From the NCBI GenBank assembly GCA_963812605.1, contig CAWEWF010000001.1, positions 627,378 to 691,377 on the forward strand: a stretch of DNA of 64,000 nt, written 5' to 3'. Shown one piece after another: positions 3,080-40,625 of the stretch (the first letter of the stretch is position 1; the number at the start of each line of letters is the position of its first letter). The stretch comes from an uncultured Verrucomicrobiae bacterium. Lineage in GTDB: Bacteria; Verrucomicrobiota; Verrucomicrobiia; Palsa-1439. Made by a program: the position numbers and the translations under genes. The notes below the pieces were generated by a model that worked only from the letters and a program-made list of their open reading frames with translations, made no database searches and was not told the DNA's origin.

Positions 3080-3107
3080 TCAGGGTTTTTCCTAGAGTAC
3101 GACCAGC
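3080..3107 (-). promoter_or_regulatory. composite TAGGA-N5-TCCTA-type site
   Basis: Minus strand GCTGG TCGTA CTCTA GGA AAAAC CCTGA, about 65 bp upstream of ATG 3173. Confidence 0.5.
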
Positions 3108-3172
3108 AAAAAAGTGCGCCGTGCCGGCTTGTGGTTCGATTTATCGGATGCCAGATTGCGTCTGTGCATTCG

Positions 3173-5179
3173 ATGAAAGATCGAACTGGTTCCACTCGTT
3201 TCGCGGTTGTTGCCGTACTTTCCCTCGCCTTCGGTTTTCAGATCGCGTCGTCGCGCGCGCAGATGACGGACGTTCTGACTTATCACAACGACAACGCGCG
3301 GACGGGACAGGCCCTGCACGAGGAAGTGTTGAGGCCGGCCAATGTCAACACTAACCATTTCGGCAAGCTGTGGGTTCTTCCCACCGATGGCCTGGTGGAT
3401 GCCCAACCGCTGTACGCGGCCGGTGTTTTGATTCCGGGCAAGGGAATGCACAACGTGTTGGTCGTAGCCACCGAGCACGACAGCGTGTATGCGTTCGATG
3501 CGGACTGCACGAACATCCTCTGGCAGGTTTCGCTGCTGGGCGGCGGCGAAACCACTTCCGATGACCACGGCTGTGGCCAGGTAACACCGGAGATCGGCAT
3601 CACCGACACGCCGGTAATTGACCGGCAGCTTGGGACCAATGGCACGATCTTCGTCGTGGCGATGAGCAAGAGCGGGTCGAGCGCATATTTTCAGCGGATA
3701 CACGCGTTGGACCTCGCCACCGGGGCCGACCGTATTCCCGCCGTCACCGTCACCGCCAGTTACCCGGCACCGGCGACAATAGCAGTGGCGGCAATGTCAT
3801 CTTTGATCCCGCCAAATACAAAGAACGGCCCGGCCTGTTGCTGTTGAATGGCGTGATCTACACGGCATGGGCGTCGCATTGCGACGCCCGGCCCTACACG
3901 GGCTGGATCATGGGGTACGCTGAACAAACGCTGGCGCAAACCAGTGTGCTGAACGTCACCCCGAATGGCAATGAAGGCGCGATCTGGATGGCCGGCGACG
4001 GTTTGGCCGCCGATGCCAATGCCAACATTTATTTTCTGGATGCCAACGGCCTCTTAGACACAAGTTTCAACGCGAGCGGTTTCCCCACCAATGGCGATTA
4101 CGGCAACGCATTTATGAAGCTCTCCACGACCAGCAATGCGCTGGCGGTGGCTGATTATTTTGACATGTCCAACACCGTCGCGGAAAATAGTACGGACGAG
4201 GATCTGGGTTCCGGTGGCGAATTCTGTTGCCGGACATGCTCGACGCGCAAAATAATACGCGCCAGCTCGCGGTCGGAGCCGGCAAGGACCAGATCATCTA
4301 CCTTGTCGACCGGATGAATATGGGGAAGTTCAGTCCCAGCACGAACGCCATTTACCAGCAGGTCAACGGTGTGCTCGCTGGCAAGCAGTATTCTACGCCC
4401 GCCTACTTCGACGGCATCCTTTATTATGGCGCTGTCGGCGACCACATCAAAGCGCTCCCGTTCCAAAATGCCCGACTGGCGGCCGTATCATCGCAAACGC
4501 CCGGTACCTTCGCTTTCCCAGGCGCGACGCCGAGTATTTCGGCCAACGGCACATCCAACGGCATCGTGTGGGCCACGGAGAACAATACCACGGCGGTCTT
4601 GCACGCGTATAATGCGACCAATCTCGCCAACGAACTCTATAACAGCAGCCAGGCCGCCGGTAATCGCGATAACTTTGGCGTCGGCAACAAATTCATCACC
4701 CCAACGATCGCCAGCGCCCGCGTCTATGTCGGCACGACGAATGGTGTCGGCGTCTTCGGCCTGCTCGATCAGTCCACATTGACCCCGCTACAAACGTGGC
4801 GCAATAACCACTTTGGCAATCCGTCGAACGTCGGCGCGGGCGCCGACACCGCCAGCCCGGCGGAGACGGCGTGCCGAACCTGATCAAATACGCCCTCGGG
4901 TTGGATCCGTATACGCCCGCGGCCACCAGCCAGTTGCCGAGCGGAAGCATCCAGCCGGACGGTGGCCAGAACTATCTCACGCTGACAGCCAACTATGTCG
5001 CGCAGGCGCCGGATGTCACCTACGCAGTCGAGGTCTCCGGCGATCTCCGAAGCTGGACGTTCGGCCCGCCATTTACCGTGACCCTCACCAACACCGCGAC
5101 GCAGCTTACCGTGCGCGACAACGTACCCTTTGGCAGCGCGCCCATGCGCTTCATTCACCTACGGATCTCGGATCCGTAG
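3173..5179 (+). CDS. secreted PQQ-like beta-propeller protein with C-terminal Verrucomicrobia-type domain (frameshifts near 3765, 4220, 4862)
   Basis: Signal peptide then DVLTYHNDNARTG, VDAQPLY, DSVYAFDAD, PEIGITDTPVID, GAIWMAG, DEDLGSGG, KFITPTIA. Four overlapping ORFs join into one continuous protein. Confidence 0.75.
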
Positions 5180-5224
5180 CGGGATCGGCGCCGTCTTGAT
5201 TGAAGAACAGTTCGCCCCTGTAGG

Positions 5225-6399: not shown

Positions 6400-8130
<1,731 letters not shown>

Positions 8131-8135: not shown

Positions 8136-8226
8136 TAGGAAAACTGACTAGGCTGTGGCCAGCACTGTTCTGAGGGCGCAATCAGGTTGGCTGCCAATTG
8201 TTGCACCACAAGCGTTGTGTCACGAT
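8136..8226 (+). promoter_or_regulatory. TAGGA AAACT GACTA site plus sigma70-like promoter (TTGTTG-17-CACGAT)
   Basis: Motif at 8136-8150 (composite extension to 8163 on the minus strand); -35 at 8198, -10 at 8221, upstream of the BON gene. Confidence 0.55.
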
Positions 8227-20928: not shown

Positions 20929-20956
20929 GCTGGTTATCTTCTAGGAGAATGGCCTA
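20929..20956 (+). promoter_or_regulatory. composite site GCTGG TTATC TTCTA GGA GAATG GCCTA
   Basis: Upstream of the beta-barrel gene. Confidence 0.65.
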
Positions 20957-23561: not shown

Positions 23562-23701
23562 GCTGAATATGTCCTAGGATGAATTCCTAGCTACGGCTTA
23601 CGCCGAATCAGTGGCTTGGCGAATATATTGTTAACCAGAAGGTTTCCTAGAAACAAATCAGTTTCCGCACCCATTGAACCACGAAGGATTCGCGGTAAAA
23701 T
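23562..23701. promoter_or_regulatory. two oppositely oriented composite sites (perfect TAGGA TGAAT TCCTA at 23575) plus sigma70-like TTGAAC-16-TAAAAT
   Basis: GCTGA ATATG TCCTA GGA TGAAT TCCTA at 23562-23589; minus ACTGA TTTGT TTCTA GGA AACCT TCTGG at 23635-23662; -35 at 23674, -10 at 23696. Confidence 0.72.
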
Positions 23702-24645: not shown

Positions 24646-25347
24646 TCATCTGATCGAGGTCGTGGCTGCCCAATGTACGGCATGGCGGACCAGTTCGGCG
24701 GCGTTTTTGAGGCCGAGTTTTCCCCGGATATTCTGCTGATAGCAGGAAACGGTTTTCTTGCTGAGATGCAGTAGTTCGGCGATTTCGCTGGTGCCGTGAC
24801 CTTCACTTACCAGCTCGAATACCTCGAGTTCACGATCGCTCAATGATTCGATCAGCGGTCGTTTGGCCGGTTCGCCGTGTTTGGCGAATGAACCCATGAC
24901 GCGCGTGGTCATTTGCTCGCTCAGGTGGATTCCGCCGTCCAGTATTTTGCGCAGGGCTTCGATGACCATTTTCATCGACTCCTGTTTCATGACGTAGCCG
25001 CGGGCGCCGGCGTGAAGCACGCGCTCGGCATAAAGCGTCTCGTCATGCATGGAAAGCGCCAGGACGGGTATTTTTCCGGAATAACGGGCGCGGATATCCT
25101 TGATCAACTCCATGCCGTTGCTGTTGTGCAGGCTGATATCGACCAGCACGGCGGCGGGTTGCAGGCGCGCGATTTCGGCCATGGCCTTCGGCGCGCTCTC
25201 GGCTTCTCCGCAGACCATCAGATCCTCGGTCTGGTTGATGGCGCTGCTCAGGCCTTCACGGATGGCGGGATGATCGTCCACCAGTAAAATTGCACTGCGT
25301 TTTGTTACAGGCTTTTTCTGTGGCTTGGACTCTTGTTTCTTTTTCAT
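24646..25347 (-). CDS. NarL/FixJ-family response regulator (REC + LuxR HTH)
   Basis: LLVDDHP, VDISL, ALSMHDE, GYVMK, LSDRELEVF...EIAELLHLSKKTV. Confidence 0.94.
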   Translation of the reverse strand: MKKKQESKPQKKPVTKRSAILLVDDHPAIREGLSSAINQTEDLMVCGEAESAPKAMAEIARLQPAAVLVDISLHNSNGMELIKDIRARYSGKIPVLALSMHDETLYAERVLHAGARGYVMKQESMKMVIEALRKILDGGIHLSEQMTTRVMGSFAKHGEPAKRPLIESLSDRELEVFELVSEGHGTSEIAELLHLSKKTVSCYQQNIRGKLGLKNAAELVRHAVHWAATTSIR

Positions 25348-25430
25348 GTAAGCCTTCAACGCAAGCTTATCATTCCCTCGCAGTTCCCACAATAGCCGAT
25401 CCTGGTTATCGCATAAAGCAAAAACTGACC

Positions 25431-25528
25431 TAGGAACTGTTCCTAGGTCACCACCCGCACAAAAGTTATCGCTATTGCGCCGGCGCGGAGCGAAGCTTTC
25501 ACGGATTCCTTCCTAGGCCACAATCGTG
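25431..25528. promoter_or_regulatory. perfect TAGGA ACTGT TCCTA (25431) and ACGGA TTCCT TCCTA (25501)
   Basis: Lies between the divergent response regulator and ACT genes. The first site extends to the palindrome TGACCTAGGAAC-T-GTTCCTAGGTCA. Confidence 0.72.
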
Positions 25529-26105: not shown

Positions 26106-26318
26106 CATTCCTTCGCCGATAAACGGCGGGTAACAGGAAAGACTGCGCTCGCAGGGCGGGCGCGGGGAGGTTGTGTTTTGCTGGCAAACGTAAATCGGAT
26201 ATCTCGGCTCCCCGGACCACCTGCCGTCCGCATGTCTTTTGATTTGTATAAAGCGCTCCCGCGCCCTATGTTTACTCCGAAAGAAGGCGCAGGCGTGGCA
26301 AAGAATTCTAGACGGAAC

Positions 26319-29300
26319 ATGGGAAAAGCATTTCCGATTGTCGGTATCGGCGCATCGGCAGGGGGGCTGGAAGCGTTTCGCCAGATGCTGGAGAAACTGC
26401 CGGTGGATACCGGCATGGGCTTCGTATTGGTGCAGCACCTTGACCCGACCCACCAAAGCCAGCTCACGGAACTGTTATCGCGCGCGACCAGGTTGCCGGT
26501 GATCGAAGCGCGGAATCATATGGTGGTGAAGCCCAACCATATCTATGTCATCCCGCCCAACACGAGCATGGGCATCATCGGCCACACGCTGAAAGTCACT
26601 CCCCGCGCCCCGGGGCGGAGCCACAACCTGCCCATCGACGCTTTCTTGGAATCATTGGCGAAGCAATGCGGCCGGCGCGCCATCGGCGTGATCCTGTCCG
26701 GCACAGCCACCGACGGGGCCGAGGGAATGAAGGCGATCCGGGCCGAAGGCGGCATCACGTTTGCGCAGGATGAGAAGTCGGCGAAGTATGACGGCATGCC
26801 GCGCGCTGCGGCGGCGACCGGTTGCGTGGATTTCGTGGCGTCGCCCGGTGCGATCGCGAAGGAATTGGCGCAAATCAGCCGCCATCCCTACGTCAACCAC
26901 GCCCGTCCCGAAAAAACGGTTGAGGCGCCGCAGGAGCCGGGGGAAGATTTGGAACAGATTTTCCGGTTGCTGCGGTCGGCCACGGGAGTGGACTTCACCC
27001 ATTACAAGCCGAACACGATTCGGCGACGCATCCAGCGGCGCATGGCTGTGCGCCGCCTGCACGACCTGAAGCAATATACGCGCTACCTGAAGGACCACCC
27101 GGACGAAGCGGAGGTCCTGTACGAGGATTTGCTCATCAGCGTCACGAGCTTCTTTCGCGATGCCGGTTCCTTCGGCGCGTTGAAGAAGAAGGTCTTTCCG
27201 AGAATCGTCAATGGACTGCGCAGCGACAGCGCGATCCGCGTCTGGGTGCCGGGCTGCGCGACCGGTGAGGAAGTGTATTCGTTGGCGATCCTGTTATTGG
27301 AATATCTCGGAGAGAGGGCCGGCCATGTGCCGATCCAGTTTTTTGCCACGGATATCAGTGAACGGGCGCTGGCCAAGGCGCGTTTGGGCCTGTTTCAGGG
27401 GAACATCGCGGCGGATGTGTCGCCGGCGCGGTTGCGCCGTTTCTTCACCAAAGTGACGGGCGGATACCAGGTCAATAAAGCCGTTCGGGAACTGTGTATT
27501 TTCGCCAAACAAAACGTCGCCAAGGACCCGCCTTTTTCGAGTCTCGACCTGATCAGTTGCCGCAATGTCCTGATTTATCTCAATCCCGTGCTGCAAAAGC
27601 GGGTCATGCCGATCTTTCACTATGCGCTGAAACCGAACGGGTTCCTGCTCCTGGGCGGGTCGGAGACGACCAGCGGATTCGAGAACCTCTTTGGGCCTTT
27701 CGACCGAAAACACCGGATCTACGCGAAACAGGCCGCGGCGGCGCGGCCAGTGGTTGACTTTTCAGTCAGCGATTATCCCGCCGGCGAGCCGGAAGCGCCG
27801 CGCCAATCAGTCGTGCCGGAACGACCGGCGTTTGACATCCAACGGGAGGCGGATCGGATGTTATTGGGACGCTTCGCGCCCGCCTCGGTGCTGATCAACG
27901 AACACATGGAGATTTTGCAGTTTCGCGGGCACACCGGTCCGTATTTGGAGGCGGCTTCCGGCTCGGCCAGCCTCAACCTGCTCAAGATGGCGCGGGAGGG
28001 ATTGTTGATGGAATTGCGCTCGGCCATCCACAAGGCCCGGAAAAAGGGCGTGCCGATTCGTCACGAGGGGCTGCGCATCAAATCGAACGGCGAGACCCGC
28101 TCGGTCAACCTCGAGGTGGTGCCGATTAAGTCCGGCATGCGGGAGCGCCACTTTCTCGTGCTGTTCCAGGAAACAGACCAGCCCGCGCCGAGCGAGGCGG
28201 TGGTCACCAAGGTGCGCCCGATCAAGACCCGAAACCTGGAGAAGACAACGGCGCGGCTCGAGCAGGAGTTGACCGCCACCAAGGATTACATGCAATCGGT
28301 GGTCGAGGATTTGGAAGACGCCAATGAGGAACTCAAGGCCGCGAACGAAGAAATCCAGTCGAGCAACGAGGAACTGCAGTCCACCAACGAGGAATTGGAA
28401 ACCGCCAAGGAAGAGTTGCAGTCCACCAACGAAGAGCTGACCACGGTCAACGAGGAATTGCAAAACCGCAACGTCGAGTTGGGCCAACTCAACAACGACC
28501 TGGTCAACGTGCTGGTCAGCGTCAACCTGCCGATTCTCATCCTCGGCCCGGACCTGCGGGTGCGGCGGATGACGCCGGCCGCGGAGAAAGTGTTGCACTT
28601 GCAGCCCGGGGATATCGGCCGGTTGGTGACGGATTTGCGGCTGCCCATGGATGTGCCGGACCTGGAGGAAATGATTGCCGATTCGATGGACTCGCTCAGC
28701 GTCAAAGCCCGCGAGGTGCGGACCCGCGATGGCCACTGGTATCTGCTGCGCATTCGTCCCTACCGGACGACTGACAACAAGATTGATGGCGCGGTGATCA
28801 AATTGCTGGATATCGACGAGCTCAAGCGCACGCTCCAGGAAACGGAGAATGCTCGTGATTTCGCGCAGGCCATCGTGGAAACCGTGCGCGAACCGTTGCT
28901 GGTGCTGAACCGCCAATTGCGCGTCCAGACGGCGAACCGGACGTTTCAGCGGGTCTTTCACGTCACGAAAGAGGAAACCGAGGGAAAATTCATTTACCAT
29001 CTTGGCGACAAACAATGGAACATCCCGGCCTTGCGCGAACTGCTGGAAAACATCCTTCCCCGGAACTCGCAATTCACGGATTTCGAGGTGGACCACGTGT
29101 TCCCGAAGATTGGGCGGCGGATTATGGTGTTGAACGCGCGGCGACTGCAACGGGACGGGAGTGACGCGCACATGATTTTGCTGGCGATCGAAGACGTCAC
29201 GGAACGCAAAAAACTGGAGAAGGCGGTGCTGGACATCAGTGAAGCGGAACAACAGCGCATCGGGCGCGATCTGCACGACGGCCTGGGACAGCATCTCACG

Positions 29301-29924
29301 GGCATCGGCTTCATGAGCGAATCCCTGGAAGATCGCCTCGCAGCCAAAGCGTTGCCCGAAGCGACGGCGCTGGCGGCAAAGGTCACCAAGCGCATCAAGG
29401 AAGCCGTCACACAAACGCGGGACCTGGCCAAAGGGCTGTTCCCCGTTGAATTGAAGACCCACGGCATCGCACCCGCTTTACAGAAGCTGGCGATCAATAC
29501 CGAAAAATTGTTCCGGATTACCTGTTCATTCAAGGGTGAAGCGTCCCTGCGGATTCGCAACGAGAGCGTGTCGCGCCATCTCTACCGGATTGCCCAGGAA
29601 GCCGTCTTCAACGCGGTGAAACACAGCCATGGAAAACACATCCGGATCCATCTTGACGAGGAGCGCGGTGCCATTCGGTTGACGATCGAGGACGATGGGG
29701 TCGGCATCGACACCCGCAAGGTGGGCGAGAGCGACATGGGGTTGGATATCATGCGCTACCGTGCCGGCGTGATCGACGCCAAATTGGACATTCGCCGGGG
29801 CCCGCAGGGCGGGACCACCGTGACGTGCATTGTTGAAAATGCCAATGGGAAAAAAGGGACTCATGAAAAGTTCAATCAAGCCAACAAAGGACAAAGGAAA
29901 ACAACGCGTCCTCATCGTCGATGA
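26319..29924 (+). CDS. CheB/CheR fusion with coiled coil, PAS domains and HisKA_3 histidine kinase
   Basis: CheB triad motifs GIGASAGG, VQHL, SGTATDG; CheR VWVPGCATGEE, ISCRNVLIY; NEELQSTNEEL repeats; H-box EQQRIGRDLHDGLGQ. Confidence 0.93.
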   Translation: MGKAFPIVGIGASAGGLEAFRQMLEKLPVDTGMGFVLVQHLDPTHQSQLTELLSRATRLPVIEARNHMVVKPNHIYVIPPNTSMGIIGHTLKVTPRAPGRSHNLPIDAFLESLAKQCGRRAIGVILSGTATDGAEGMKAIRAEGGITFAQDEKSAKYDGMPRAAAATGCVDFVASPGAIAKELAQISRHPYVNHARPEKTVEAPQEPGEDLEQIFRLLRSATGVDFTHYKPNTIRRRIQRRMAVRRLHDLKQYTRYLKDHPDEAEVLYEDLLISVTSFFRDAGSFGALKKKVFPRIVNGLRSDSAIRVWVPGCATGEEVYSLAILLLEYLGERAGHVPIQFFATDISERALAKARLGLFQGNIAADVSPARLRRFFTKVTGGYQVNKAVRELCIFAKQNVAKDPPFSSLDLISCRNVLIYLNPVLQKRVMPIFHYALKPNGFLLLGGSETTSGFENLFGPFDRKHRIYAKQAAAARPVVDFSVSDYPAGEPEAPRQSVVPERPAFDIQREADRMLLGRFAPASVLINEHMEILQFRGHTGPYLEAASGSASLNLLKMAREGLLMELRSAIHKARKKGVPIRHEGLRIKSNGETRSVNLEVVPIKSGMRERHFLVLFQETDQPAPSEAVVTKVRPIKTRNLEKTTARLEQELTATKDYMQSVVEDLEDANEELKAANEEIQSSNEELQSTNEELETAKEELQSTNEELTTVNEELQNRNVELGQLNNDLVNVLVSVNLPILILGPDLRVRRMTPAAEKVLHLQPGDIGRLVTDLRLPMDVPDLEEMIADSMDSLSVKAREVRTRDGHWYLLRIRPYRTTDNKIDGAVIKLLDIDELKRTLQETENARDFAQAIVETVREPLLVLNRQLRVQTANRTFQRVFHVTKEETEGKFIYHLGDKQWNIPALRELLENILPRNSQFTDFEVDHVFPKIGRRIMVLNARRLQRDGSDAHMILLAIEDVTERKKLEKAVLDISEAEQQRIGRDLHDGLGQHLTGIGFMSESLEDRLAAKALPEATALAAKVTKRIKEAVTQTRDLAKGLFPVELKTHGIAPALQKLAINTEKLFRITCSFKGEASLRIRNESVSRHLYRIAQEAVFNAVKHSHGKHIRIHLDEERGAIRLTIEDDGVGIDTRKVGESDMGLDIMRYRAGVIDAKLDIRRGPQGGTTVTCIVENANGKKGTHEKFNQANKGQRKTTRPHRR

Positions 29925-30552
29925 CCACGCGGTGCTGCGCGAAGGACTGGCGCTGGTGATCAATGCCCAGCCCGACCTGCAGGTATGTGGGGAAGCCGCC
30001 ACCGTGAGCGGCGGGTTGCAAGCCGTGGCCACAGCGCGGCCGGACATTGCGCTCATCGATCTTTCGTTGATGGGCGGCAGCGGGCTGGAGCTGGTCAAGG
30101 ACCTGAAGGCGCAACATCCCAACCTGCCCACGCTGGTGCTGTCGCTGCACGACGAGGCGCTCTACGCGGAACGCGTGCTGCGCGCTGGGGCCCGAGGGTA
30201 CATCATGAAGCGGGCGGCGACGACCGACCTGCTGCTGGCAATCCGCAAGATCCTGGATGGCGAGATTTATCTGAGCGAAACGATGGGGTCGGTGGTTGTC
30301 CGCCAGGCGCTCGGGGATCGGGAATCTCCAACCGGTGGCGGTCCGCTGGAACAGCTCAGCGATCGGGAACTGGAAGTGTTCCAACTTCTCGGGGAGGGGC
30401 ACAGTACGCGCGAGATTGCCGGGCAACTCAAGTTGAGCATAAAAACCATTTCGTGTTACCGGCAGAATATCCAGACCAAGCTGGAACTAAAAGATGCCGC
30501 GGCGCTGGTGCAGCGCGCCGTCCACTGGGCCGCGACCCTGCGGGCCGACTGA
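29863..30552 (+). CDS. NarL/FixJ-family response regulator
   Basis: LIVDDH, IDLSL, LSLHDE, LSDRELEVFQLL...SIKTISCYRQNI; overlaps the kinase 3' end. Confidence 0.94.
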   Translation: MKSSIKPTKDKGKQRVLIVDDHAVLREGLALVINAQPDLQVCGEAATVSGGLQAVATARPDIALIDLSLMGGSGLELVKDLKAQHPNLPTLVLSLHDEALYAERVLRAGARGYIMKRAATTDLLLAIRKILDGEIYLSETMGSVVVRQALGDRESPTGGGPLEQLSDRELEVFQLLGEGHSTREIAGQLKLSIKTISCYRQNIQTKLELKDAAALVQRAVHWAATLRAD

Positions 30553-31741: not shown

Positions 31742-31826
31742 GCTGGTATTCAGGTAAGAAAACCACCCATTCTTCGGCTAGGAGTTTTCGGTAGCGACAG
31801 TGCGGGAAACATAGGATATCGTCCGA
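31742..31826 (+). promoter_or_regulatory. three motif copies (GCTGG..TAAGA AAACC ACCCA; TAGGA GTTTT CGGTA; TAGGA TATCG TCCGA)
   Basis: At 31742-31769, 31779-31793 and 31812-31826, between the divergent ACT and DUF2934 genes. Confidence 0.6.
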
Positions 31827-31912
31827 TGCAAGATTCGGGTCTTGCCCGACTGGTAACCGAAAGAGGTGTCCGCTATTCTTGCCGATGTTTGGAGATTGGA
31901 GGGAGAGTTATT

Positions 31913-32562: not shown

Positions 32563-32665
32563 GCTGGGCTTCTTCTAGGAGGTTCCCCTAAGAGGCTTAT
32601 GACATCGCCCTAGAGTAATACCGGTGTTCCCCCCAATTGTCATACAGCCGGGTGAGGTCTATCCT
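32563..32665. promoter_or_regulatory. composite site GCTGG GCTTC TTCTA GGA GGTTC CCCTA, second copy TATGA CATCG CCCTA, sigma70-like TTGTCA-17-TATCCT
   Basis: Sites at 32563-32590 and 32598-32612; -35 at 32637, -10 at 32660, upstream of csbD. Confidence 0.68.
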
Positions 32666-33992: not shown

Positions 33993-34204
33993 GCTGATTG
34001 CGATCTAGGAGCTTCTCCCATGAGGATGTTTGCTCAGTCGGACTTCACCAATGGGCTGTTGGTGTCCTTCCGGCCGCTTTTCAGTTCCTTGCGGGCTTTG
34101 CCCGGTCCGTTCTAGGATATTCTCCGAGTGGAACTGGGGGTTACATCCCAGACCGAAACTAGCACGCTGCCCAATTGCGGAGTTCGCAAAACCGGGGCTT
34201 AATT
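33993..34204. promoter_or_regulatory. two composite sites (TAGGA GCTTC TCCCA at 34006; TAGGA TATTC TCCGA at 34113) and a TTGCGG..TTAATT promoter-like pair
   Basis: GCTGA TTGCG ATCTA GGA at 33993; GCCCG GTCCG TTCTA GGA at 34100; CCAATTG at 34171. Confidence 0.6.
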
Positions 34205-34230: not shown

Positions 34231-34455
34231 ATGACAACGAACGAGACATTACGTGAAGTCAGCCAAAAGAGCCGGTATCGAGGCAGAAACGTCCTTCTGC
34301 GCGGGCGAAGACGTGGACCGCATGATCAATGGCTTCCCGAAGCCAGCCTGGCAACGATCTGGCCGGTGGAGGACCAGGCGCGGTGCATTCCCATACGCTG
34401 GGTGCCTTCCCAGGCGCGCGTTGTCCCCGTGAGCCAGAAGGAGGGTGGACATTGA
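34231..34455 (+). CDS. small basic hypothetical protein (74 aa)
   Basis: ATG with GAAAGG RBS just downstream of the promoter-like elements; no recognisable family. Confidence 0.4.
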   Translation: MTTNETLREVSQKSRYRGRNVLLRGRRRGPHDQWLPEASLATIWPVEDQARCIPIRWVPSQARVVPVSQKEGGH

Positions 34456-34684
34456 TAACAAGTGCCGGCTCTCGGTGGCGTCCGCGGTTGCGAATGTCCG
34501 TTAAGACCTCGGACATTCTCCGAGATTCGGCTGCGGTCGTGTCCGAGAGTGAAATAGGCGAGGTTGCCCCATTGTTTCATCCCCATGGATGCGGGATATT
34601 TACAGCGGCAGCAGGAAATACCTCGGTATTCGGAGAGTATGCGTGCGTCAGCACAAACATCAGGAGTGCAGAACAAAGGGATGC

Positions 34685-35122
34685 ATGTATTTGAAGGATG
34701 TCATGAAGAAAAGAATCGAGGTTGTGGGTCCCGATACTCTTTTGCGAGAAGCCGCCCGCAGAATGAACGCGGACGGAATTTCTTTGTTTCCCGTGTGTGA
34801 GGGTCTGACGATGGTCGGGGTGCTTACCACGCGTGACATCACCGTGAGGGCGACGGCGCAGGGCTGTGATCCTCGGGTTACCCGCGTGCGCGCGGTAATG
34901 ATGGCCCCAACGATTTATGGCCAGGAAAACCAGAACCTTGATGAAGCGGCTGATCTTATGGAGAGATGGTCGCTCTACCGACTACCCGTATTGAATCAAA
35001 AGATGGAGTTGGTGGGAATCATTTCCTTGCGGGATTTGTCTGGAAACGCCCCACCGACGGCACGGCATTCCCCAGTTCACCGACGGAAGCGGATTTTGAA
35101 GGAGCACCGCTTGATCAAATAA
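34685..35122 (+). CDS. CBS domain protein
   Basis: [33 protein letters not shown]...[15 protein letters not shown]. Confidence 0.88.
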
Positions 35123-35147: not shown

Positions 35148-35309
35148 ATGTTGTATTGGGCCCTGGTATTTTTCATCATTGCCCTGGTAGCCGGAGTCCT
35201 CGGTTTTGGCGGGATCGCGGCGGCGGCGACGGACATGGCCAGGATTCTGTTTTTCATCTTTCTGGTCATATTTCTCGTGACGCTGATGTTCGGATTGGTG
35301 CGGCGTTAA
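35148..35309 (+). CDS. DUF1328 (YtjA) small membrane protein (53 aa, absent from ORF track)
   Basis: [53 protein letters not shown]; RBS AAGGAG. Confidence 0.92.
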
Positions 35310-35345: not shown

Positions 35346-35373
35346 TCGCAATGTGTCCTAGGATATGTTCCTG
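35346..35373 (+). promoter_or_regulatory. composite site TCGCA ATGTG TCCTA GGA TATGT TCCTG
   Basis: Upstream of the PAS-GAF kinase/response regulator pair. Confidence 0.65.
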
Positions 35374-35458
35374 TGGCAGAATAGGAGCACCTTGGAGACG
35401 CACAAACTTGCAAATCCACGAGCCGTGATTAGGCTTGGTGTGTGCTGGGAGCACTCTC

Positions 35459-37247
35459 ATGACCGGGCGAGTGATTCAACTTAACGAAAAAGAGCAATTC
35501 GTATTCATGACGACTCCGAAATCGAAGTTCTCCGCTTTCGCTTCCATGGGTGGAGAGCGGCGGAACGGAGACCGGCGTGAGGAAGGAGTGGGATTCCGGT
35601 GGATCCGTGAAGCTCTTCGCCGGACCCCGGAGGCGCTGGAGCCATTGCGGGATGGGAAAGGACTGCACCACTTGCTTTTCGAAAAGGTGCCGCACCCGCG
35701 CTTTGTCTGCGATGCCCGGACACTGCGGATCCTCGTCGTAAATGAGGCCGCCATCCATCGTTATGGGTATTCACGCGAGGAATTCCTTCGCATGAAGATT
35801 ACGGACGTTGGCGCGCCGGAATGTTTTGCTGCTTTCAAAGAATACTGCCGAACAATTCCGTCGTCTCGCTTCGTTGCCGCCGGGCCCGAAGACAGCGTCT
35901 TTCGCCATCGGAAGAAGGACGGCAAATTGATGGACATCGCGGTGGACGCGGCGTTGATTCCCCTGGGCCACCGCCGCATGTTCCTGCTGTTGGCGCAGGA
36001 CATCACCCGGCAACGGCGTGCGATGCAGCGTCTTCGCACGCAAGAGGCCACCACCCGCGCGTTGGCCGAGTCTTCCACACTGGCCGAGGCCGGTCCGAAA
36101 GTTTTCCACGCCATTTGCGAGAACCTGGGTTGTGACTGGGGCGAGTTGTGGAGAGTGGATTCCACGGCCCAGCGCATGCGTTGTACCCAGACCTGGAATC
36201 CGCAAGGTGGAGCGTTGCCGGGAATGCAACAATCCATTCGGAATGCGCTCTTTGCCCGGGGTGAGGGAATTGCCGGCGCGATTTGGGCCCGCAACAAGCC
36301 GCTCTGGATTGCAGACATCGATCAACATCCGGAACAGTTCCGTGCCGCGATCATGAAAAAATGCGGATTGCGGACCGTCTGCGCGTTCCCGATCCGGCTA
36401 AACAAGGAAGTATTGGGAGTGATCAGCATTTTTAAGCGTCAGGTATTGCCTCCCGATAAATATGTACTGAAGATGTTGAAGGACATTTGCAGCCAGATTG
36501 GGCAGGTAATGGGTCGGCGCCGCGCCGAACGCCGTTTGTTGCAGGTCACCGAGGACGAACAGCAGCGGATCGGGCAGGATCTACATGACGGCTTGTGCCA
36601 GCAACTGGCCGGCATTGCCTACATCGCGAGCACCTTGGAAAACGAGCTTGTCCAGGAATCTCCCACCCGAGCTGTGACGGCGGCGCGAATTGCCGAATTG
36701 TCCCGGGAAACCGCGATCCAGGCGCGCCAAATTGCGCGCGGGCTCAACCCGGTGAACCTGGGCACGACGGGCCTGATGGCGGCATTAAAGGAATTGGCCG
36801 GTTCCATACGGTCCTTGTTCTCCATTTCCTGCCCGGTTCGAATGTCCTCGTCGGGTCCTTGTGCCGGATCATGAAACGGCCGTGCATCTTTATCGGATTA
36901 CGCAAGAAGCGATTCACAACGGGATTGCTCATGGCAAGGCAACCGAGATCGTTGTCTCTCTGCGGCGGGAGCCCGGCAAGATCGTCCTCCGGGTTACGGA
37001 CAACGGCCGCGGCCTTCCCAGGACGACGACGAACAGTGACGGAATGGGTTTCGAGAACATGAACTATCGCGCACGAGCCATTGGCGCGCGCCTGCATTTC
37101 CAGGCCCGCCCGCGGGGCGGGACGGTCATGCTTTGTGAAGTGCCAAACCAAATGGGAGGTCAAGATGAAGAGCGAACGCGTAAAACAGCCAGAGGTCGGA
37201 GCCAAGCAGCAAATTCTCCTGGTGGACGATCACCCGGTGGTTTGTGA
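35459..37247 (+). CDS. cytoplasmic PAS-GAF-HisKA_3 histidine kinase (frameshift ~36832)
   Basis: PAS VNEAAIHRYGYSREEFL, GAF WGELW..GEGIAGAIW..AFPI, H-box EQQRIGQDLHDGLCQ; continues ISCRFECPRRVLVPDHETAVHLYRITQEA in the shifted frame. Start codon uncertain. Confidence 0.88.
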
Positions 37248-37956
37248 AGGGTTGATGCAACGGATCAACGCCGAACCGGACCTGGAGGTTTGTGGCCGGG
37301 CGCACGACGGTCATTCCGCGCTGGATGCCATTGAGAAACTGCGTCCGAATATCGCCGTGGTCGACATCGCCCTGGGTGCCGGCAGCGGTGTAGAATTGAT
37401 CAAGGACATCAAGGTGCGTTATCCGCATCTGCCGGCCCTCGTGCTCTCGATGCACGCCGAGGAACTTTACGCCGAACGGAGCCTGCACGCGGGCGCCAAG
37501 GGTTATGTCATGAAACAGGAAGAGACTTCTGTTCTCCTGCGAGCGATTCGCCAGGTACTGCGCGGCGAGGTCTATCTCAGCGAGAAGGTCAAAGACGGGA
37601 TCGTCAGGCGGCTCGGGGGCATTGTTCCGGATGGTCAGGTGATCTCGCTCATCAAACAATTGAGCGATCGTGAATTGGAAGTCTTCCAGTTGATCGGGGA
37701 TGGTTTTGCCACCCATGAAATCGCGGTCCGTCTCCACATCAGCATGAAGACCATTGCTTCGCATCGCGAGAACATCAAGCGCAAGCTGAATCTACGCGAC
37801 GGTGAACAACTGGCTCGCTTTGCGATTCACTGGTTGCGGTACCGCGATGCCGGTCCGAACGCCGCGGCTTCGGTCGTCGCGCCGCCGCTGCAACCGAAAC
37901 CGATCTCCCGCGTGAAATCGACCGCGCATCGCAAAACTGTTTCCGCAGGCCGGTAA
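37165..37956 (+). CDS. NarL/FixJ-family response regulator
   Basis: LLVDDHP, VDIAL, LSMHAE, LSDRELEVFQLI...SMKTIASHRENIKRKL. Confidence 0.94.
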   Translation: MKSERVKQPEVGAKQQILLVDDHPVVCEGLMQRINAEPDLEVCGRAHDGHSALDAIEKLRPNIAVVDIALGAGSGVELIKDIKVRYPHLPALVLSMHAEELYAERSLHAGAKGYVMKQEETSVLLRAIRQVLRGEVYLSEKVKDGIVRRLGGIVPDGQVISLIKQLSDRELEVFQLIGDGFATHEIAVRLHISMKTIASHRENIKRKLNLRDGEQLARFAIHWLRYRDAGPNAAASVVAPPLQPKPISRVKSTAHRKTVSAGR

Positions 37957-38409
37957 GAGCCGACTCGCAACGCGTTTTTCCAAAGAAGGAATGCCACATC
38001 CCTCGGCCGGGAAAGGCGAGGGAGTGCATCGGCCGACAGCCATGCTTGAAGGCACAATGCTTTTCGAGAAGCCGGGAGGTGAGGTTCCCGGGTTGTTTGG
38101 GGGGTGGGGTGCATTGTCGCGGTCAAGGGTGAGGAGGACTGCCGCCGATGCCACTGCGAGGGGAACAGTCTGGCGCGAGAAGTTGGAGGCGTTGCCGCCA
38201 TCCGGCTGCCGCAACGTTCCGGAGTCACCCCGTTGGTACAACCCCTTCCCCAGCACACTACAGCGCGAACCTTCTCGCGCCAGACTGGCTTAATTATTTC
38301 GCCACGAGAAACGCCATCTGAAAATATATTCATTCGATTACTGATCGCGATCCTCTCTGCGATGTCGCCAGTCTGCGACAGAAGCCCGCTTCCGGCAATT
38401 GGGCGCAAG

Positions 38410-38437
38410 ACCGATTCTCGGGTAGGAAAAGCTCCTG
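38410..38437 (+). promoter_or_regulatory. composite site ACCGA TTCTC GGGTA GGA AAAGC TCCTG
   Basis: Within the 0.9-kb gap 37957-38913; further TCCTA half-sites at 38513 and 38641. Confidence 0.55.
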
Positions 38438-38913
38438 CCAATGCGACGCAGAATCTGGTAAACGAAGGTCGGGCTATCCCCATCGCGGCATCGAAACCAT
38501 CAGCTGTTTACCTCCTACCGGCTGGCGCCGCGAAGGAATGCGTCTCACAACGGCCTTCCGAAGATCATTGGGAACGCACACTCGCGCCTCTCAGAGGCAT
38601 TTCTCTCCGTTTTCCTGGAGAAATCGCTGACCATTGAGCTTCCTATCAAGCAGTGTTAGCGTATATTCCAGATGCTACGATAGAGTATTATGAGATGCGA
38701 ATTAATGCGTGGAAAGATCATCACGGCTTTGTTGAGCGTGTGCTGTTTCGCCGGCGCCAATGAACTGAATCAAGGGATCCACGCGACGGTTTACCACCAT
38801 CCACCCTTTTTTGGGAAAACCATTGGTCACAAGAGTGGCCTGGGCTAGCGGGAATCAGATTGGCGGTGAGGAGTATGCCTCTGGAGCGCTCCTCGTCAAT
38901 CGAATTGGCGATT

Positions 38914-39937
38914 ATGAGGTTAATCCAAGCTCTTGAGCAGCGATCGCGACAGTTTTTTGTGCTCGCGTGCCTGGGTGTTCTGACGCTGGTCGGATTGGTC
39001 GATTACCTGACTGGATTTGAAGTTTCTTTTTCTGTTTTCTATCTGTTGGGAATCGGATTGGCTGTCTGGTTTGTCAGCAAGGGGTTTGGTTTGTTGCTGT
39101 CCATCCTGAGCGTGGCCGTTTGGCTGGTAGGCGACATTGCGGCTGGCGCACATTATTCCAGTCCATTTATTCCTGTCTGGAACGTAGCAGTTGTAACAGC
39201 CTTTTACTTCATCGTAGTCTGGCTTCTGGCCAGATTGCGTTCGCTTCAGAAGGAACTGGAGAATCGAGTTCAGCAGCGAACAATTGCTCTGACTCAGGAG
39301 ATGACCGAGCGGGAACGTTTGGAAAAGGAGATCCTCAATGTCGTGGAACGCGAACAACAGCGGATCGGGCACGATTTGCACGACAGCCTGGGTCAGCATC
39401 TTACCGCGGCGGCATTGGCCGGCAAGGTATTGTCGGATCAACTGGCGGACCAACCGGTTCCTGCGGCGGCGGCCCGTCGGGTCGTGGCGCTTGTCGAAGA
39501 CGGCATTGCGCTCACGCGCACCCTGGCACGTGGGCTGACCCCTGTGGAGTTGGCGGCGGATGGGCTAATGGAAGCCTTTGAGGAATTATCAGACAGCACT
39601 TCCGAGCGGTTTCGTGTCGAGTGCCGATTTGAGTGCGACGTGCCGGTGCTGATTCCCGAAGCGGTGACGGCGACACACCTCTACCGCATTGCGCAGGAGG
39701 CGATCAACAACGCCATCAAGCATGGTCAATCCAAACACATCATCATGCAGCTCGCCAAGACCGAAGCCGGCGCGGTGTTGGAGATACTCGACGACGGCGC
39801 GGGCCTGCCAGACCCGTTGCCCGCGCAACACGGAATGGGGTTGCGGATCATGGCCCATCGCGCCACCATGATCGGCGGGGCTCTCACGGTGCGCCGGGGC
39901 CGGGGGCGGCACGGTTGTCACCTGCACGGTGCCATGA
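38914..39937 (+). CDS. membrane HisKA_3 sensor kinase (frameshift in GC run ~39900)
   Basis: About four TM helices (VDYLTGFEVSFSVFYL), H-box EREQQRIGHDLHDSLGQ; the alternative frame gives the normal end GGTVVTCTVP-TGA. Confidence 0.87.
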
Positions 39938-40590
39938 ACCAGAAACGCGTCTTTCTTGTGGATGATCACCCATTGGTGCGGGAGTGGTTGACGACTCACT
40001 TGCGCCAGCAGAGCGATCTCGCCGTTTGCGGAGAAGCCGAAGATGCGCCGCGTGCGCTCCAAGGAATTCTCGCACTGAAACCTGACGTGGTGATTCTGGA
40101 CATTTCCATGTCGGGCCGGTCTGGCATCGACTTGATCAAGGACCTGAAACGGTTGCAGCCGAACGCGGGGGTGATTGTGCTGTCAATGCATGATGAAATG
40201 ACACACGCGGAACGGGCTCTCCGCGCCGGTGCCCGCGCCTACATCATGAAGCGGGAGGCGACCGACAAAATCGTCACCGCCATCCGCCAGGTGCTGGCCG
40301 GGAAACTATACGTCAGCGAACGCGTCCAAGCGCGGCTCGCGGAGAAGTTTGTTGGCGCCATGCCACCCGCCAGCCAGTCGCCGGTAAACCTTCTTAGCGA
40401 CCGCGAGTTGGAAGTGTTCCAGCTCCTTGGTCAGGGCCGCGACACCAAACAGATCGCGGAGGAATTACAGGTCAGCTTCAAGACCGTTCACGCCTTCTGC
40501 GCCCGCATCAAAGAGAAGCTCGGTCTCACCAAAGCCACCGAACTGCTTCGCGAGGCCGTTCGCTGGGAAGAACAGCGCGAACGCATGTAG
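39934..40590 (+). CDS. NarL/FixJ-family response regulator
   Basis: MNQKRVFLVDDHP, LDISM, LSMHDE, LSDRELEVF; ATGA overlap with the corrected kinase stop. Confidence 0.92.
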   Translation: MNQKRVFLVDDHPLVREWLTTHLRQQSDLAVCGEAEDAPRALQGILALKPDVVILDISMSGRSGIDLIKDLKRLQPNAGVIVLSMHDEMTHAERALRAGARAYIMKREATDKIVTAIRQVLAGKLYVSERVQARLAEKFVGAMPPASQSPVNLLSDRELEVFQLLGQGRDTKQIAEELQVSFKTVHAFCARIKEKLGLTKATELLREAVRWEEQRERM

Positions 40591-40625
40591 GATTGGTTCG
40601 TACAGAAGTCCTGGAACGCGTCCTA
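40588..40625. promoter_or_regulatory. two motif copies TAGGA TTGGT TCGTA and CTGGA ACGCG TCCTA
   Basis: In the 70-bp gap before the TolC-family gene. Confidence 0.55.

Follow-up and report, generated by a model that had tools for sequence, protein, structure and literature searches.

The palindrome TAGGA-N5-TCCTA, which recurs in the window (the whole 64,000-nucleotide stretch of an uncultured Verrucomicrobiae genome analysed here), is probably the high-affinity site of a dimeric NarL/FixJ-type regulator that is encoded within the same island and acts at activator-type promoters. This regulator most likely belongs to the clade of two of the island's response regulators, RR1 and RR2, with the recognition helix KT[VI]SCY[QR]QNI. 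Judged from sequence, this is a sound regulon prediction of a familiar kind, with a NarL/FixJ-type site that most likely lies beside the genes of its regulators, and the regulator-site reading of the original prediction is supported, as is a predicted target regulon. What is new here is that the palindrome stands at a fixed distance from the promoter, with a half-site-like element that begins exactly 23 bp downstream of its own start; this architecture, as well as a second island on another contig, is absent from the original prediction.

The palindrome is an inverted repeat of T-N-R-G-A-type half-sites and falls within the 14-20 bp class of NarL/FixJ sites (PWM). Both copies described as perfect (23575 and 25431) are indeed exact, while 0.02 exact copies are expected in the window. 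With at most one mismatch, we find 10 copies (20942, 23575, 25431, 31812, 32576, 34006, 34113, 35359, 38423, and 40588) versus 0.33 expected and a maximum of 3 in 100 shuffles. Eight of the ten sites listed as close copies are thus confirmed at this level, while 8136 and 40611 have two mismatches. Across the whole genome (4.17 Mb), 44 of the 46 copies with at most one mismatch are intergenic by a first, crude set of gene calls, in agreement with the claim that the sites are non-coding, and copies inside genes are near absent (2/46). A second set of gene calls gives 39 such intergenic copies, whereas simulated intergenic DNA contains 6.3 ± 2.5 (order-1 Markov) or 7.2 ± 2.3 (order-3), with a maximum of 13 (25 simulations each). 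The enrichment is therefore approximately 5-6-fold over dinucleotide- and tetranucleotide-matched intergenic backgrounds, and the original prediction stands on this comparison (39 versus 6-7 copies). About six of the genome-wide matches are tRNA T-arms (TAGGTTCGAnTCCTA).

The enrichment is specific to the five-base spacer, for which we count 43 (3 + 40) intergenic matches, compared to 3-14 for the other spacers within N0-N20. Tandem arrangements give further peaks, with 32 matches for a direct repeat with N18 and 17 for an everted repeat with N8. The tetranucleotide CTAG is as rare as had been stated, with 1507 occurrences in the genome versus 15405 expected from base composition (ratio of 0.098). 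The extent of the island differs from the original prediction: rather than 3-40.6 kb, its dense part spans ~20.9-40.6 kb, plus an outlier at 8.1 kb. No PWM match of at least 8 bits is found in the window past 40602, and thus the Tad/adhesin part has none, as had been noted.

A gap of 19-20 nt separates the palindrome from a downstream CCRA directly joined to TTGnnn (-35), which is followed after 16-17 nt by nAnnnT (-10). Among 112 site-orientations, CCRATTG occurs at offsets 19-20 in 10 exact cases (17 with at most one mismatch) and at other offsets in 0-2, except for 3 exact cases at 42-43, where the palindrome stands another 23 bp upstream. Of 20 palindromes from other species, selected for perfection alone, 13 have CCRATTG at 19-20 nt. 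The nAnnnT peak at 16-17 nt after TTGnnn comprises 19 counts for 21 promoters here and 9 for 13 promoters from relatives, with 3 and 2 counts, respectively, at 19 nt and 0-3 at the remaining spacers; an independent sigma-70 scan returns TTGAAC-16-TAAAAT at 23674 and TTGTCA-17-TATCCT at 32637. Conservation within the core hexamers is limited to TTG in the -35 and A2/T6 in the -10. Of 34 promoters, 17 have a half-site-like T[AC][GA]G that begins exactly 23 bp from the start of the palindrome, and none has one at the other shifts from 16 to 33. Where the spacer is 20 nt, the right half of this proximal site is one base out of register. By our own reading of 17 promoters oriented by their -35, 9 have a perfect proximal half of the palindrome and 7 a perfect distal half, so that both halves matter. 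With every transcription start placed by hexamer spacing, the predicted layout pairs a strong distal site, centred near -66, with a weak proximal one directly against the -35, and we estimate that the genome has ~20-25 promoters of this composite type.

Several sites in the window have this kind of layout. At the BON gene, TAGGAAAACTGACTA (2 mismatches) at 8136 heads a plus-strand array (8136..8226) with weak units at +23 and +46, followed by CCAA joined to TTGTTG (-35, 8198-8203) and CACGAT (-10, 8221-8226); 8136 is supported as a working site by the correctly spaced promoter that lies 46 bp downstream of it. The minus-strand operator TAGGAGAATGGCCTA (20942..20956; 1 mismatch, 16.7 bits) is the distal site for a 181-aa gene of no known function (20258-20803, minus strand), with a predicted -35 at 20917-20912 and -10 TACAAT at 20895-20890. 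On the plus strand, TAGGATATCGTCCGA (31812..31826) precedes CCGA joined to CTGGTA (31850-31855), -10 TATTCT (31874-31879), and a DUF2934 gene (31913-32176). The distal site TAGGAGGTTCCCCTA (32576..32590, minus strand) belongs to a leftward promoter (-35 32552-32547, -10 TAAGCT 32530-32525) of a small gene (32217-32441, minus strand) and also lies 22 bp upstream of 32598, the site of the rightward CsbD promoter. Two further minus-strand operators are 34006..34020 (reverse complement TGGGAGAAGCTCCTA; -35 TTGTCG 33981-33976, -10 TACGCT 33958-33953), which is conserved in G006 and faces a 157-aa gene of no known function (33417-33890, minus strand), and 38423..38437 (reverse complement CAGGAGCTTTTCCTA; -35 TTGCCG 38398-38393, -10 CAGACT 38375-38370), whose promoter points into a conserved stretch (38066-38365, minus strand) that does not look protein-coding. 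Two plus-strand sites were read by eye: TAGGATATTCTCCGA (34113..34127), 46 bp upstream of the proximal TAGCACGCTGCCCAA joined to TTG (34159-34177) and with a 74-codon ORF (34232-34456) downstream, and the variant TCGGACATTCTCCGA (34509..34523; 13.6 bits), upstream of TAGGCGAGGTTGCCCCA joined to TTG, which is probably the promoter site of the CBS (34685-35122) and DUF1328 (35148-35309) genes.

Ten weaker copies, with 2-3 mismatches, had also been proposed, and four of these are borne out by a correctly spaced -35/-10 downstream. The plus-strand CCAGAAGGTTTCCTA (23635..23649) has 3 mismatches and an intact right half, and lies 20 nt from its -35, the same distance as strong palindromes elsewhere; its core is CCCA joined to TTGAAC (-35, 23674-23679), 16 nt, and TAAAAT (-10, 23696-23701), ahead of DUF5666/CusF-like genes (23760-24155 and 24213-24626). 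In ACGGATTCCTTCCTA (25501..25515, plus strand), 20 nt separate the operator from CCGA joined to TTGCGG (-35, 25540-25545), and no clean -10 is seen under the spacing rule applied; the target is a 163-aa gene of no known function (25614-26105), and the CheB-CheR-PAS kinase and RR2 genes downstream are possibly served as well. A paralogue of this 163-aa gene (31159-31650, minus strand) is the target of 31755..31769 (minus strand; reverse complement TGGGTGGTTTTCTTA; -35 TTGCAT 31730-31725, -10 TAAACT 31706-31701), while TATGACATCGCCCTA (32598..32612, plus strand) precedes CCAA joined to TTGTCA (-35, 32637-32642), 17 nt, TATCCT (-10, 32660-32665), and the CsbD gene (to 32909). The copies at 6400, 6437, 30600, and 31779 score 1-5 bits each and lack support, 19014 is uncertain, and 3080 (10.2 bits) is placed within an ORF by our home-made gene calls, which makes it an exception to the non-coding claim.

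A smaller set of strong sites (23575, 25431, 35359, and 40588/40611) has no standard -35 at 19-20 nt, and these may act differently, either over a long distance or in repression or autoregulation. The perfect operator TAGGATGAATTCCTA (23575..23589), between a MASE1-PAS kinase gene (minus strand) and a DUF5666 gene (plus strand), has no correctly spaced -35 on either flank, and 5 further species of the genus have the identical 15-mer. The other perfect operator, TAGGAACTGTTCCTA (25431..25445), is part of a larger palindrome of 25 nt, lies 39 nt ahead of the longest RR1 ORF (minus strand), and is probably the autoregulation site of RR1. On the plus strand, TAGGATATGTTCCTG (35359..35373) lies 62 nt upstream of a PAS-GAF-HisKA_3 kinase gene (35435-36874) with a second TAGGA 23 bp downstream and no core promoter identified. 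Finally, the pair TAGGATTGGTTCGTA and CTGGAACGCGTCCTA (40588..40625, plus strand), 23 bp apart, lies between the hybrid kinase-RR4 gene and an outer-membrane efflux gene (40660-41958), 34 nt from the efflux ORF, with no assignable promoter.

All four co-located NarL-type regulators of the original prediction are found in the island, each with a receiver and a GerE domain: RR1 (24646..25392, minus strand; recognition helix KTVSCYQQNI), RR2 (29830..30552, plus; KTISCYRQNI), RR3 (37081..37956, plus; KTIASHRENI), and RR4 (38860..40590, plus; KTVHAFCARI), the last fused to a hybrid HisKA_3 kinase. By Pfam, these GerE domains are the only DNA-binding domains in the island. The separate histidine kinases are a MASE1-PAS-PAS-HisKA_3 protein (20981..23470, minus), a CheB-CheR-PAS-PAS-HisKA_3 protein (26178..29924, plus), and the PAS-GAF-HisKA_3 protein (35435..36874, plus), in whose ORF no ATPase domain is detected and which is followed by RR3. 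A fragment of RR1 (residues 9-63) aligns to RcsB 150-204, and the Lys-Thr at the place of RcsB K180 is invariant in all six paralogues; the relationship is only distant (E of 1e-15), with RcsB ranked behind VraR, NarL, DevR, and EvgA.

The palindrome is confined neither to the island nor to this genome but is patchy across a family. Within the genus, perfect palindromes occur in 8 genomes (G000, G006, G014, G007, G013, G015, G009, and G011), which are exactly those with RR2-clade, SCY-class regulators, whereas the best regulator match in G012 is ASH-class and the composite is seen in 0 of the 12 non-tRNA sites examined there. In another genus, G047 has two SCY-class regulators flanked by palindromes, plus a composite match. 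The palindrome thus tracks one recognition-helix class, that of the RR1/RR2 clade, with one counter-example: G040, also of another genus, has 4 composite matches and a neighbouring regulator with the helix KTIETHRANI. These related genomes are not independent samples, and because the RR3 subclade (KT[VI]ASHRENI) co-occurs with the palindrome in the same 8 genomes, the phyletic evidence cannot separate RR3 from RR2.

A second island with the palindrome lies on another contig (C6), and the targets in the two islands include CsbD, BON, YtxH, DUF948, DUF892, Ku, LigD, MscS, and kinases, which suggests a general-stress, osmotic, and DNA-repair gene set as the output of the regulon. No universal stress protein gene is seen among the targets examined, and several predicted promoters have no gene called downstream by our home-made calls. 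Outside these islands, a palindrome without a composite promoter precedes an ECF sigma gene (C1:504670) and is retained in G012, where the regulon is missing.

In the mechanism that we favor, several HisKA_3 kinases (MASE1-PAS, CheB/CheR-PAS, PAS-GAF, and hybrid) would feed in signals, and the regulator, once phosphorylated, would occupy the strong distal site first and then the weak proximal site on one helix face. The degenerate proximal site would have T[AC][GA]G as its left half and a right half merged into CCRA, which places it directly against the -35. The bound regulator could then recruit RNA polymerase to intrinsically poor promoters, as described for BvgA at Pfha and Pptx, while the operators before kinase and regulator genes would provide autoregulation. 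What the original prediction calls an operator is probably a site for activation from upstream and not for repression. We consider it unlikely on balance that the palindrome is a repressor or dual-use operator, at which the regulator, perhaps unphosphorylated, blocks or loops promoters until stress relieves it. Such a role would suit 25431 and 40588/40611, which lie 39 and 34 nt from the RR1 and efflux ORFs, respectively, and the strong sites without a correctly spaced -35, and RcsB boxes can raise or lower transcription according to a published account (PMC7913699). At the 34 composite promoters, however, the palindrome is entirely upstream of the -35 and overlaps neither the -10 nor the start in any case, the hexamers of the core promoter are weak, as is typical of activator-dependent promoters, and the architecture fits an activator, BvgA.

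It is decidedly unlikely that an alternative sigma factor reads CCRATTG as an extended -35 together with nAnnnT, with the palindrome an accessory bound by a possibly non-island protein. The conservation of CCRA directly before TTG is compatible with this, as is the lack of intergenic enrichment of CCRATTG alone (density ratio of 1.17), which means that it is not a general housekeeping element, and one palindrome does precede the ECF sigma gene. Yet TTGnnn-16/17-nAnnnT is ordinary sigma-70 geometry, the enrichment belongs to the palindrome, both halves of which are conserved though needless for a sigma factor, neither island has a sigma gene, and the palindrome before the ECF gene has no composite and is kept in the regulon-less G012. 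Binding by another dimeric transcription factor, whether an island protein (the 163-aa pair or the 157-aa protein) or one encoded elsewhere, is very doubtful: at least 7 island proteins have no Pfam match, the tie to any given regulator is correlative only, and G040 is a counter-example, but the half-sites are identical to those of two NarL-family sites that have been solved or footprinted, a phasing of 23 bp is characteristic of this family, no further DNA-binding domain is detected, and the proteins without Pfam matches are themselves targets. That the palindrome is no protein site at all, but an RNA hairpin or terminator, a mobile-element end (MITE/REP), a by-product of CTAG avoidance, or chance, is extremely improbable. 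CTAG is scarce, and 25431 lies within a stem of 11 bp that has a T run behind it and was flagged as terminator-like, but no minus-strand gene ends at 25450, the stem is just 5 bp at the other sites, and the repeats around the sites end within ~30 nt. Together with the restriction to N5, the simulated backgrounds, and the position of the sites upstream of the predicted starts, where they would not be transcribed, this largely refutes these explanations.

The preferred reading, an activator site for a NarL/FixJ-type regulator, has its closest parallel in BvgA of Bordetella, a member of the same family. One account (PMC7250471) gives TAAGAAATTTCCTA as the BvgA primary site and describes head-to-head dimers 22 bp apart on one helical face, with the strongest site furthest upstream and, at Pfha and Pptx, weaker sites downstream, the last of which abuts a poor -35. 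The half-site is nearly identical to ours, and the order of a strong upstream site, a half-site-like unit, and a last unit abutting the -35 is the same; the promoters described here likewise have approximately two-turn phasing, the strongest site upstream, and the last site abutting the -35. The BvgA sites differ in having a 4-base spacer (14-bp site), a 22-bp period, and three to six units, whereas ours have a 5-base spacer (15 bp), a 23-bp period, and mostly two units, with three at the BON, CsbD, and 34113 promoters. BvgA also controls a virulence regulon in another phylum, whereas the binding predicted here concerns a stress regulon.

The likeness to the RcsAB box (TAAGAATATTCCTA) that had been pointed out holds, since the half-sites are the same with one extra central base. 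The RcsB box of Enterobacteriaceae is given as TN(G/A)GA-N4-TC(T/C)NA in PMC7913699, with GA read by K180 of the recognition helix, and its half-sites (TNRGA/TCYNA) and its stress and envelope regulon resemble what we observe. An RcsB box proper is rejected, as its N4 spacer is at background level (10 intergenic matches versus 43 for N5). RcsB further differs in its auxiliary partners (RcsA, GadE, and BglJ), none of which is evident here, and in having boxes at many positions, also inside genes, rather than at a fixed distance to the -35.

The DosR/DevR-DosS/DosT system of Mycobacterium combines a NarL-type regulator, GAF/PAS-HisKA_3 kinases, and a palindromic Dev box. It shares with the present case a stress/dormancy gene set, a palindromic box at activator positions, and autoregulation, but the DosR/PVC stress box is a G/C-rich dyad, unlike TAGGA/TCCTA with its odd 15-bp length and extra distal site. 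Membership of our palindrome in the DosR/PVC box is rejected, as the dyad ATGGGGT-N4-ACCCCAT has no copy in the window or the C6 island. This dyad does occur at 10 intergenic sites elsewhere in the genome and, by our own reading, is followed at several promoters by a -10-like hexamer 22 nt beyond its end, so that it occupies the place of CCRAT in the TAGGA-N5-TCCTA promoters.

The palindrome TAGGA-N5-TCCTA (15 bp) is a genuine cis-regulatory element, and very probably it is the predicted operator of the NarL-type response regulators of its own island, which would act from it as upstream activators of a stress regulon. Within the window, the exact sequence TAGGANNNNNTCCTA occurs twice (23575 and 25431), where 0.02 copies are expected; when one mismatch is allowed, the count rises to ten, where 0.33 are expected and 100 dinucleotide shuffles reach three at most. 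Across the source genome (G000; 4.17 Mb in 15 contigs, about 58% G+C), 46 matches differ from the motif at one position or none, and 44 of them are intergenic by a crude first set of gene calls, in agreement with the non-coding placement described in the original prediction. Gene calls were home-made, from long ORFs scored by codon usage; with a second set, 39 intergenic copies compare with 6.3 ± 2.5 and 7.2 ± 2.3 in order-1 and order-3 Markov simulations from the intergenic DNA of this genome (25 runs per order; maximum 13), and the enrichment over a matched intergenic background that had been named as a test is thus borne out. When the half-sites were held fixed and the spacer varied in intergenic DNA, N5 returned 3 exact and 40 one-mismatch matches, against 3–14 for every other spacer from N0 to N20; about six of the N5 matches are tRNA T-arms (TAGGTTCGAnTCCTA). 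Together, the spacer control, the intergenic bias and the enrichment over background argue that the motif is real, spacing-specific and non-coding. CTAG, which had been said to be generally rare in GC-rich bacteria, is indeed depleted in this genome (1507 observed versus 15405 expected by base composition).

A position weight matrix built on 38 intergenic seeds gave 34 intergenic and 2 coding matches at 14 bits or more. Its iterative refinement at a 12-bit threshold was abandoned because of drift from 63 to 199 matches, and the seed matrix was kept instead. Sequence similarity around the sites stops within about 30 nt, which argues for independent promoters rather than for copies of a mobile element.

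The promoters share a composite design, which was resolved with 56 non-tRNA sites of at least 12 bits (112 site-orientations). At offsets of 19–20 nt past the palindrome, CC(G/A)ATTG has 10 exact copies, or 17 if one mismatch is allowed, against 0–2 at other offsets, the exception being 3 exact copies at 42–43 nt, one 23-bp step away. By itself, CCRATTG is not enriched between genes (intergenic density ratio of 1.17) and is therefore not a general promoter element. In 21 promoters of this genome, nAnnnT follows TTGnnn with 7 and 12 counts at 16 and 17 nt, respectively, with 3 counts at 19 nt and 0–3 at the remaining spacers, which identifies TTG as the start of a sigma-70-type −35 element. Had CCRATTG instead been the −10, the palindrome would lie at −41.5; this reading is ruled out by the TAnnnT peak 16–17 nt further downstream, and the sigma-28-like, ECF-like and sigma-54-like readings considered alongside it were dropped in favor of TTG as the −35. 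An independent sigma-70 scan found two of the composite promoters, TTGAAC-16-TAAAAT at 23674 and TTGTCA-17-TATCCT at 32637. If the −10 is taken to occupy −12 to −7, the palindrome would extend from about −73 to −59 and be centered near −66 or −67.

Closer to the −35, 17 of 34 promoters carry a half-site-like element, T[AC][GA]G, exactly 23 bp past the palindrome start, and no other shift between 16 and 33 bp yields it; its partner half merges into CCRA. The genome-wide scan contains 32 direct TAGGA-N18-TAGGA and 17 everted TCCTA-N8-TAGGA matches, and both peaks correspond to 23 bp start to start. GAATCG/CGATTC was considered as a separate second operator and rejected, since the left half-site of the proximal unit, at its +23 phase, accounts for it more readily. 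The half-site variant TCCGA is also common among strong sites. In total, about 20–25 promoters of this genome have a predicted geometry at the base-pair level.

Ten promoters of composite design are predicted in the window. On the forward strand, they serve the BON gene at 8.2 kb (site 8136, −35 at 8198, −10 at 8221), the DUF5666 gene (site 23635, −35 at 23674, −10 at 23696), 25614–26105 (site 25501, −35 at 25540, no clean −10), the DUF2934 gene (site 31812, −35 at 31850, −10 at 31874) and the CsbD gene (site 32598, −35 at 32637, −10 at 32660). Those on the reverse strand serve 20258–20803 (site 20942, −35 at 20917, −10 at 20895), 31159–31650 (site 31755, −35 at 31730, −10 at 31706), 32217–32441 (site 32576, −35 at 32552, −10 at 32530) and 33417–33890 (site 34006, −35 at 33981, −10 at 33958), together with a leftward promoter that has no clear gene (site 38423, −35 at 38398, −10 at 38375). 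Several predicted promoters have no gene downstream in our home-made calls. Two further arrays, read by eye, have 34113 and 34509 as their upstream members. As to the grading of copies in the original prediction, all ten with at most one mismatch had been called perfect or close, two others graded among these (8136 and 40611) carry two mismatches, and the ten called weaker carry two or three each; four of the latter, 23635, 25501, 31755 and 32598, nonetheless gain support as predicted working sites because each lies 20 nt before a correctly spaced −35 of its own.

The sites at 23575, 25431, 35359 and 40588/40611 have no standard −35 at 19–20 nt. They precede kinase, regulator and efflux genes, and they may reflect autoregulation or another mode of action. 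The perfect copy at 25431 forms part of a longer palindrome of 25 nt, TGACCTAGGAACAGTTCCTAGGTCA (25426–25450), itself without mismatch. On the minus strand, a T-rich run comes after this longer palindrome, which was flagged as terminator-like; no minus-strand gene ends there.

Intergenic matches of at least 11 bits, counted in 20-kb bins, form two clusters, with the remainder scattered: one in the window (C1:627378–691377), at 640–680 kb of contig C1 (11 matches), and one at 100–140 kb of contig C6 (9 matches). The window island encodes YtxH, DUF948, Dps/ferritin and DUF202 proteins, a MASE1-PAS-HisKA_3 kinase with the regulator RR1 (24646–25392, −), a CheB-CheR-PAS-HisKA_3 kinase with RR2 (29830–30552, +), DUF2934, CsbD, CBS and DUF1328 proteins, a PAS-GAF-HisKA_3 kinase with RR3 (37081–37956, +), and the hybrid kinase-regulator RR4 (38860–40590, +) followed by an OEP/HlyD/AcrB efflux set; several further proteins have no Pfam match. 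Beyond 46 kb, the genes for the Tad pilin and the giant Ig-domain proteins are free of sites, as originally described. The C6 island (C6:100000–141000, loci L013–L015) encodes a PAS-HisKA_3 kinase, LigD, an AI-2E transporter, BON, DUF892, DUF748, DUF948, BrkB, Ku, YtxH, an epimerase and a further NarL-type regulator. Elsewhere in the genome, sites lie upstream of genes for MscS channels, an alpha/beta-hydrolase-cupin-MscS group, Nramp, an AhpC-like protein, a Ysc84-like protein and a 1918-aa HAMP-GAF hybrid kinase. Judged by family names alone, the target genes are those of a response to general and osmotic stress and of dormancy.

Some genes of these islands merit separate mention. The C6 island is partly paralogous to that of the window, the shared genes being those for the AI-2E transporter (69% DNA identity over about 345 bp), BON, YtxH and DUF948. 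The ORFs at 25614–26105 (+) and 31159–31650 (−) encode a pair of 163-aa paralogues, both conserved in the related genome G006 and both behind a predicted operator-dependent promoter; their ACT_8 matches are sub-threshold only, and they are candidates for small-molecule-binding stress proteins. The AcrB-type transporter at 43062–46203 is read as two ORFs covering profile positions 2–654 and 663–1019 with a 17-nt overlap, possibly because of a frameshift or sequencing error, or because the gene is really divided.

Among 30 relatives, perfect palindromes are restricted to part of the same genus and two small, lower-G+C genomes of the class, with 9 copies in G006, 7 in G014, 3 each in G007, G013 and G015, 2 each in G009 and G011, 1 in G008, and none in G001–G005, G010, G012, G016 or G017; one-mismatch counts are graded likewise. 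The sequence TAGGATGAATTCCTA has the same letters throughout in six species. From G006, G014, G013, G007 and G009, we took 20 palindromes chosen solely for being perfect, and 13 of them have CCRATTG (at most one mismatch) at 19–20 nt on one side; in these 13 promoters, nAnnnT has 9 counts at 16–17 nt. The strict signature TCCTA-N19/20-CCRATTG occurs 10 times in the source genome, 7 times in G006 and 3–4 times in G007, G009, G015, G040, G044 and G047, the last three representing three other genera of the same family, against totals of 0–2 for the reversed control in nearly all of 47 genomes (3 in G017). These counts indicate a system that is patchy across a family, the compared genomes being kin rather than independent samples. 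Around more remote homologues of RR1, from named Verrucomicrobiia, Akkermansiaceae, Lentisphaerales and Sedimentisphaerales MAGs, no sites of at least 12 bits were found except for two weak ones in a single locus (L031). The window island is syntenic with G006 over 20.2–34.0 kb, within which 31.8–33.5 kb is absent from that genome, as is 34.0–38.0 kb. A one-mismatch palindrome, TAGGATTGTCTCCTG, lies just 5′ of an ECF sigma gene in both the source genome (C1:504670, L016) and G012 (C12:35355, L091). It is kept with its flank in G012, a genome without the regulon, and is probably unrelated to the TAGGA-N5-TCCTA operator, for example as the ECF sigma's own promoter.

RR1 resembles VraR, NarL, DevR, EvgA, DesR and RcsB. 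The source genome encodes six such paralogues, with recognition helices in several classes: RR1 (KTVSCYQQNI) and RR2 (KTISCYRQNI) are of the SCY class, RR3 (KTIASHRENI) and RR5 on C14 (KTVASHREHI) are of the ASH class, and RR4 and RR6, the latter on C6, have KTVHAFCARI and KTVELYRQRI. An SCY-class protein of the RR2 clade is present in all 8 motif-bearing genomes of the genus, as is an ASH protein of the RR3 type, and the best hits in G001, G002, G005, G008, G010 and G016 belong to other helix classes, according to a quick version of the regulator tree with the G012 row left out. In G012, the best hit is an RR5-type ASH protein; the genome has 34 one-mismatch matches, and among 15 loci examined, three are tRNA and none of the other 12 carries the composite. 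G047, of another genus, encodes two SCY-class regulators on one contig with palindromes and a composite match beside them; in G040, the regulator adjoining composite matches has another helix. This distribution favors the SCY class as the candidate binder of the operator, with RR3 a possible one.

The comparison with RcsB and BvgA is instructive. The RcsB box is TN(G/A)GA-N4-TC(T/C)NA according to PMC7913699, in which K180 is the residue reading the (G/A)GA motif. The Lys-Thr at the head of the recognition helix is invariant in all six paralogues, and residues 9–63 of the RR1 query match residues 150–204 of the RcsB chain; if this 55-residue match is ungapped, the pair would fall at K180. For BvgA, the primary site of Pfha is TAAGAAATTTCCTA, head-to-head dimers are 22 bp apart, the high-affinity site is furthest upstream and the last site abuts a poor −35, as given in PMC7250471. 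Half-sites and layout are thus shared with the palindrome described here, whereas the N5 spacer and the 23-bp period differ. Because the N4 spacing of TAGGA/TCCTA is at background in this genome, the element is not strictly an RcsB box. The proposed mechanism follows a known pattern, that of BvgA and RcsB. The regulon, the N5 geometry and the host group are new, and no description of the motif turned up among the listed titles and abstract openings of an open-access library. On this reading, the BvgA-type design of a strong distal and a weak proximal site would be in use far outside Proteobacteria, and a one-base change in half-site spacing (N5 versus N4) sets this regulon apart from the classical RcsB/BvgA boxes, a difference that bears on the avoidance of cross-talk among paralogous NarL regulators.

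A second dyad, ATGGGGT-N4-ACCCCAT, is present in the source genome as 5 exact copies and 5 with one mismatch, all ten intergenic (C1:15604, 161439, 543410, 544448 and 546303; C3:101257; C5:102405 and 191329; C6:464916; C8:109415), and none, exact or one-mismatch, in the window or the C6 island. Its spacer preference is for N4 (19 copies with at most two mismatches, against 3–11 for other spacers), and several copies have a TAnnnT-like hexamer 22 nt downstream. The CAT end of this box is 22 nt before the −10, the place held by CCRAT in the TAGGA promoters, and so a dimer would sit in the same position in both classes; the distal palindrome is extra in the TAGGA class.

Taken as a whole, and quite tentatively, these observations could mean that the family runs its general stress/dormancy response via a network of paralogous NarL-type regulators that many HisKA_3 kinases feed, rather than via an alternative sigma factor, with two operator classes, TAGGA-N5-TCCTA and ATGGGGT-N4-ACCCCAT, that place a dimer at the same −35-adjacent spot. 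In that case, the TAGGA class would be a branch that expanded recently on islands, acquired a high-affinity distal site and drew NHEJ repair (Ku, LigD), osmoprotection (MscS, BON), small stress proteins and perhaps a regulated non-coding RNA at 38066–38365 (−) into the network. For uncultured Verrucomicrobia of soil and freshwater, in which the induction of stress protection is not known from experiment, the outcome here is a concrete predicted wiring diagram. It comprises a 15-bp operator, its promoters, a few candidate regulators and kinases, and targets that include many proteins of unknown function, for which it provides a link to stress.

Two stretches of the window are unusual in themselves. 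The first, 6451–8130, separates the AI-2E transporter gene from the BON promoter and consists of a run of about 42 G followed by 1636 bases with just 13 C (A 532, G 425, T 666). The rest of the source genome, G006 and G014 all lack a counterpart to it, a search for it as a C-to-T converted genomic copy found its self-match alone, and it looks like an assembly or sequencing artefact. The other, 38066–38365 (−), comprises about 300 nt on the downstream side of the predicted operator-dependent promoter at 38370–38437 and is 72% identical to G006. All of its frames are about equally conserved, several with stops, and just one stays open in both species, its composition oddly rich in R, W and C. 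A comparison of the window with Rfam at gathering scores matched no family, 37900–38900 gave none at E-values up to 1, and the fold of 38066–38363 (−) is not significant (z = −1.37). The stretch may correspond to a stress-regulated non-coding RNA or, because it runs towards the 3′ end of RR3, an antisense RNA.
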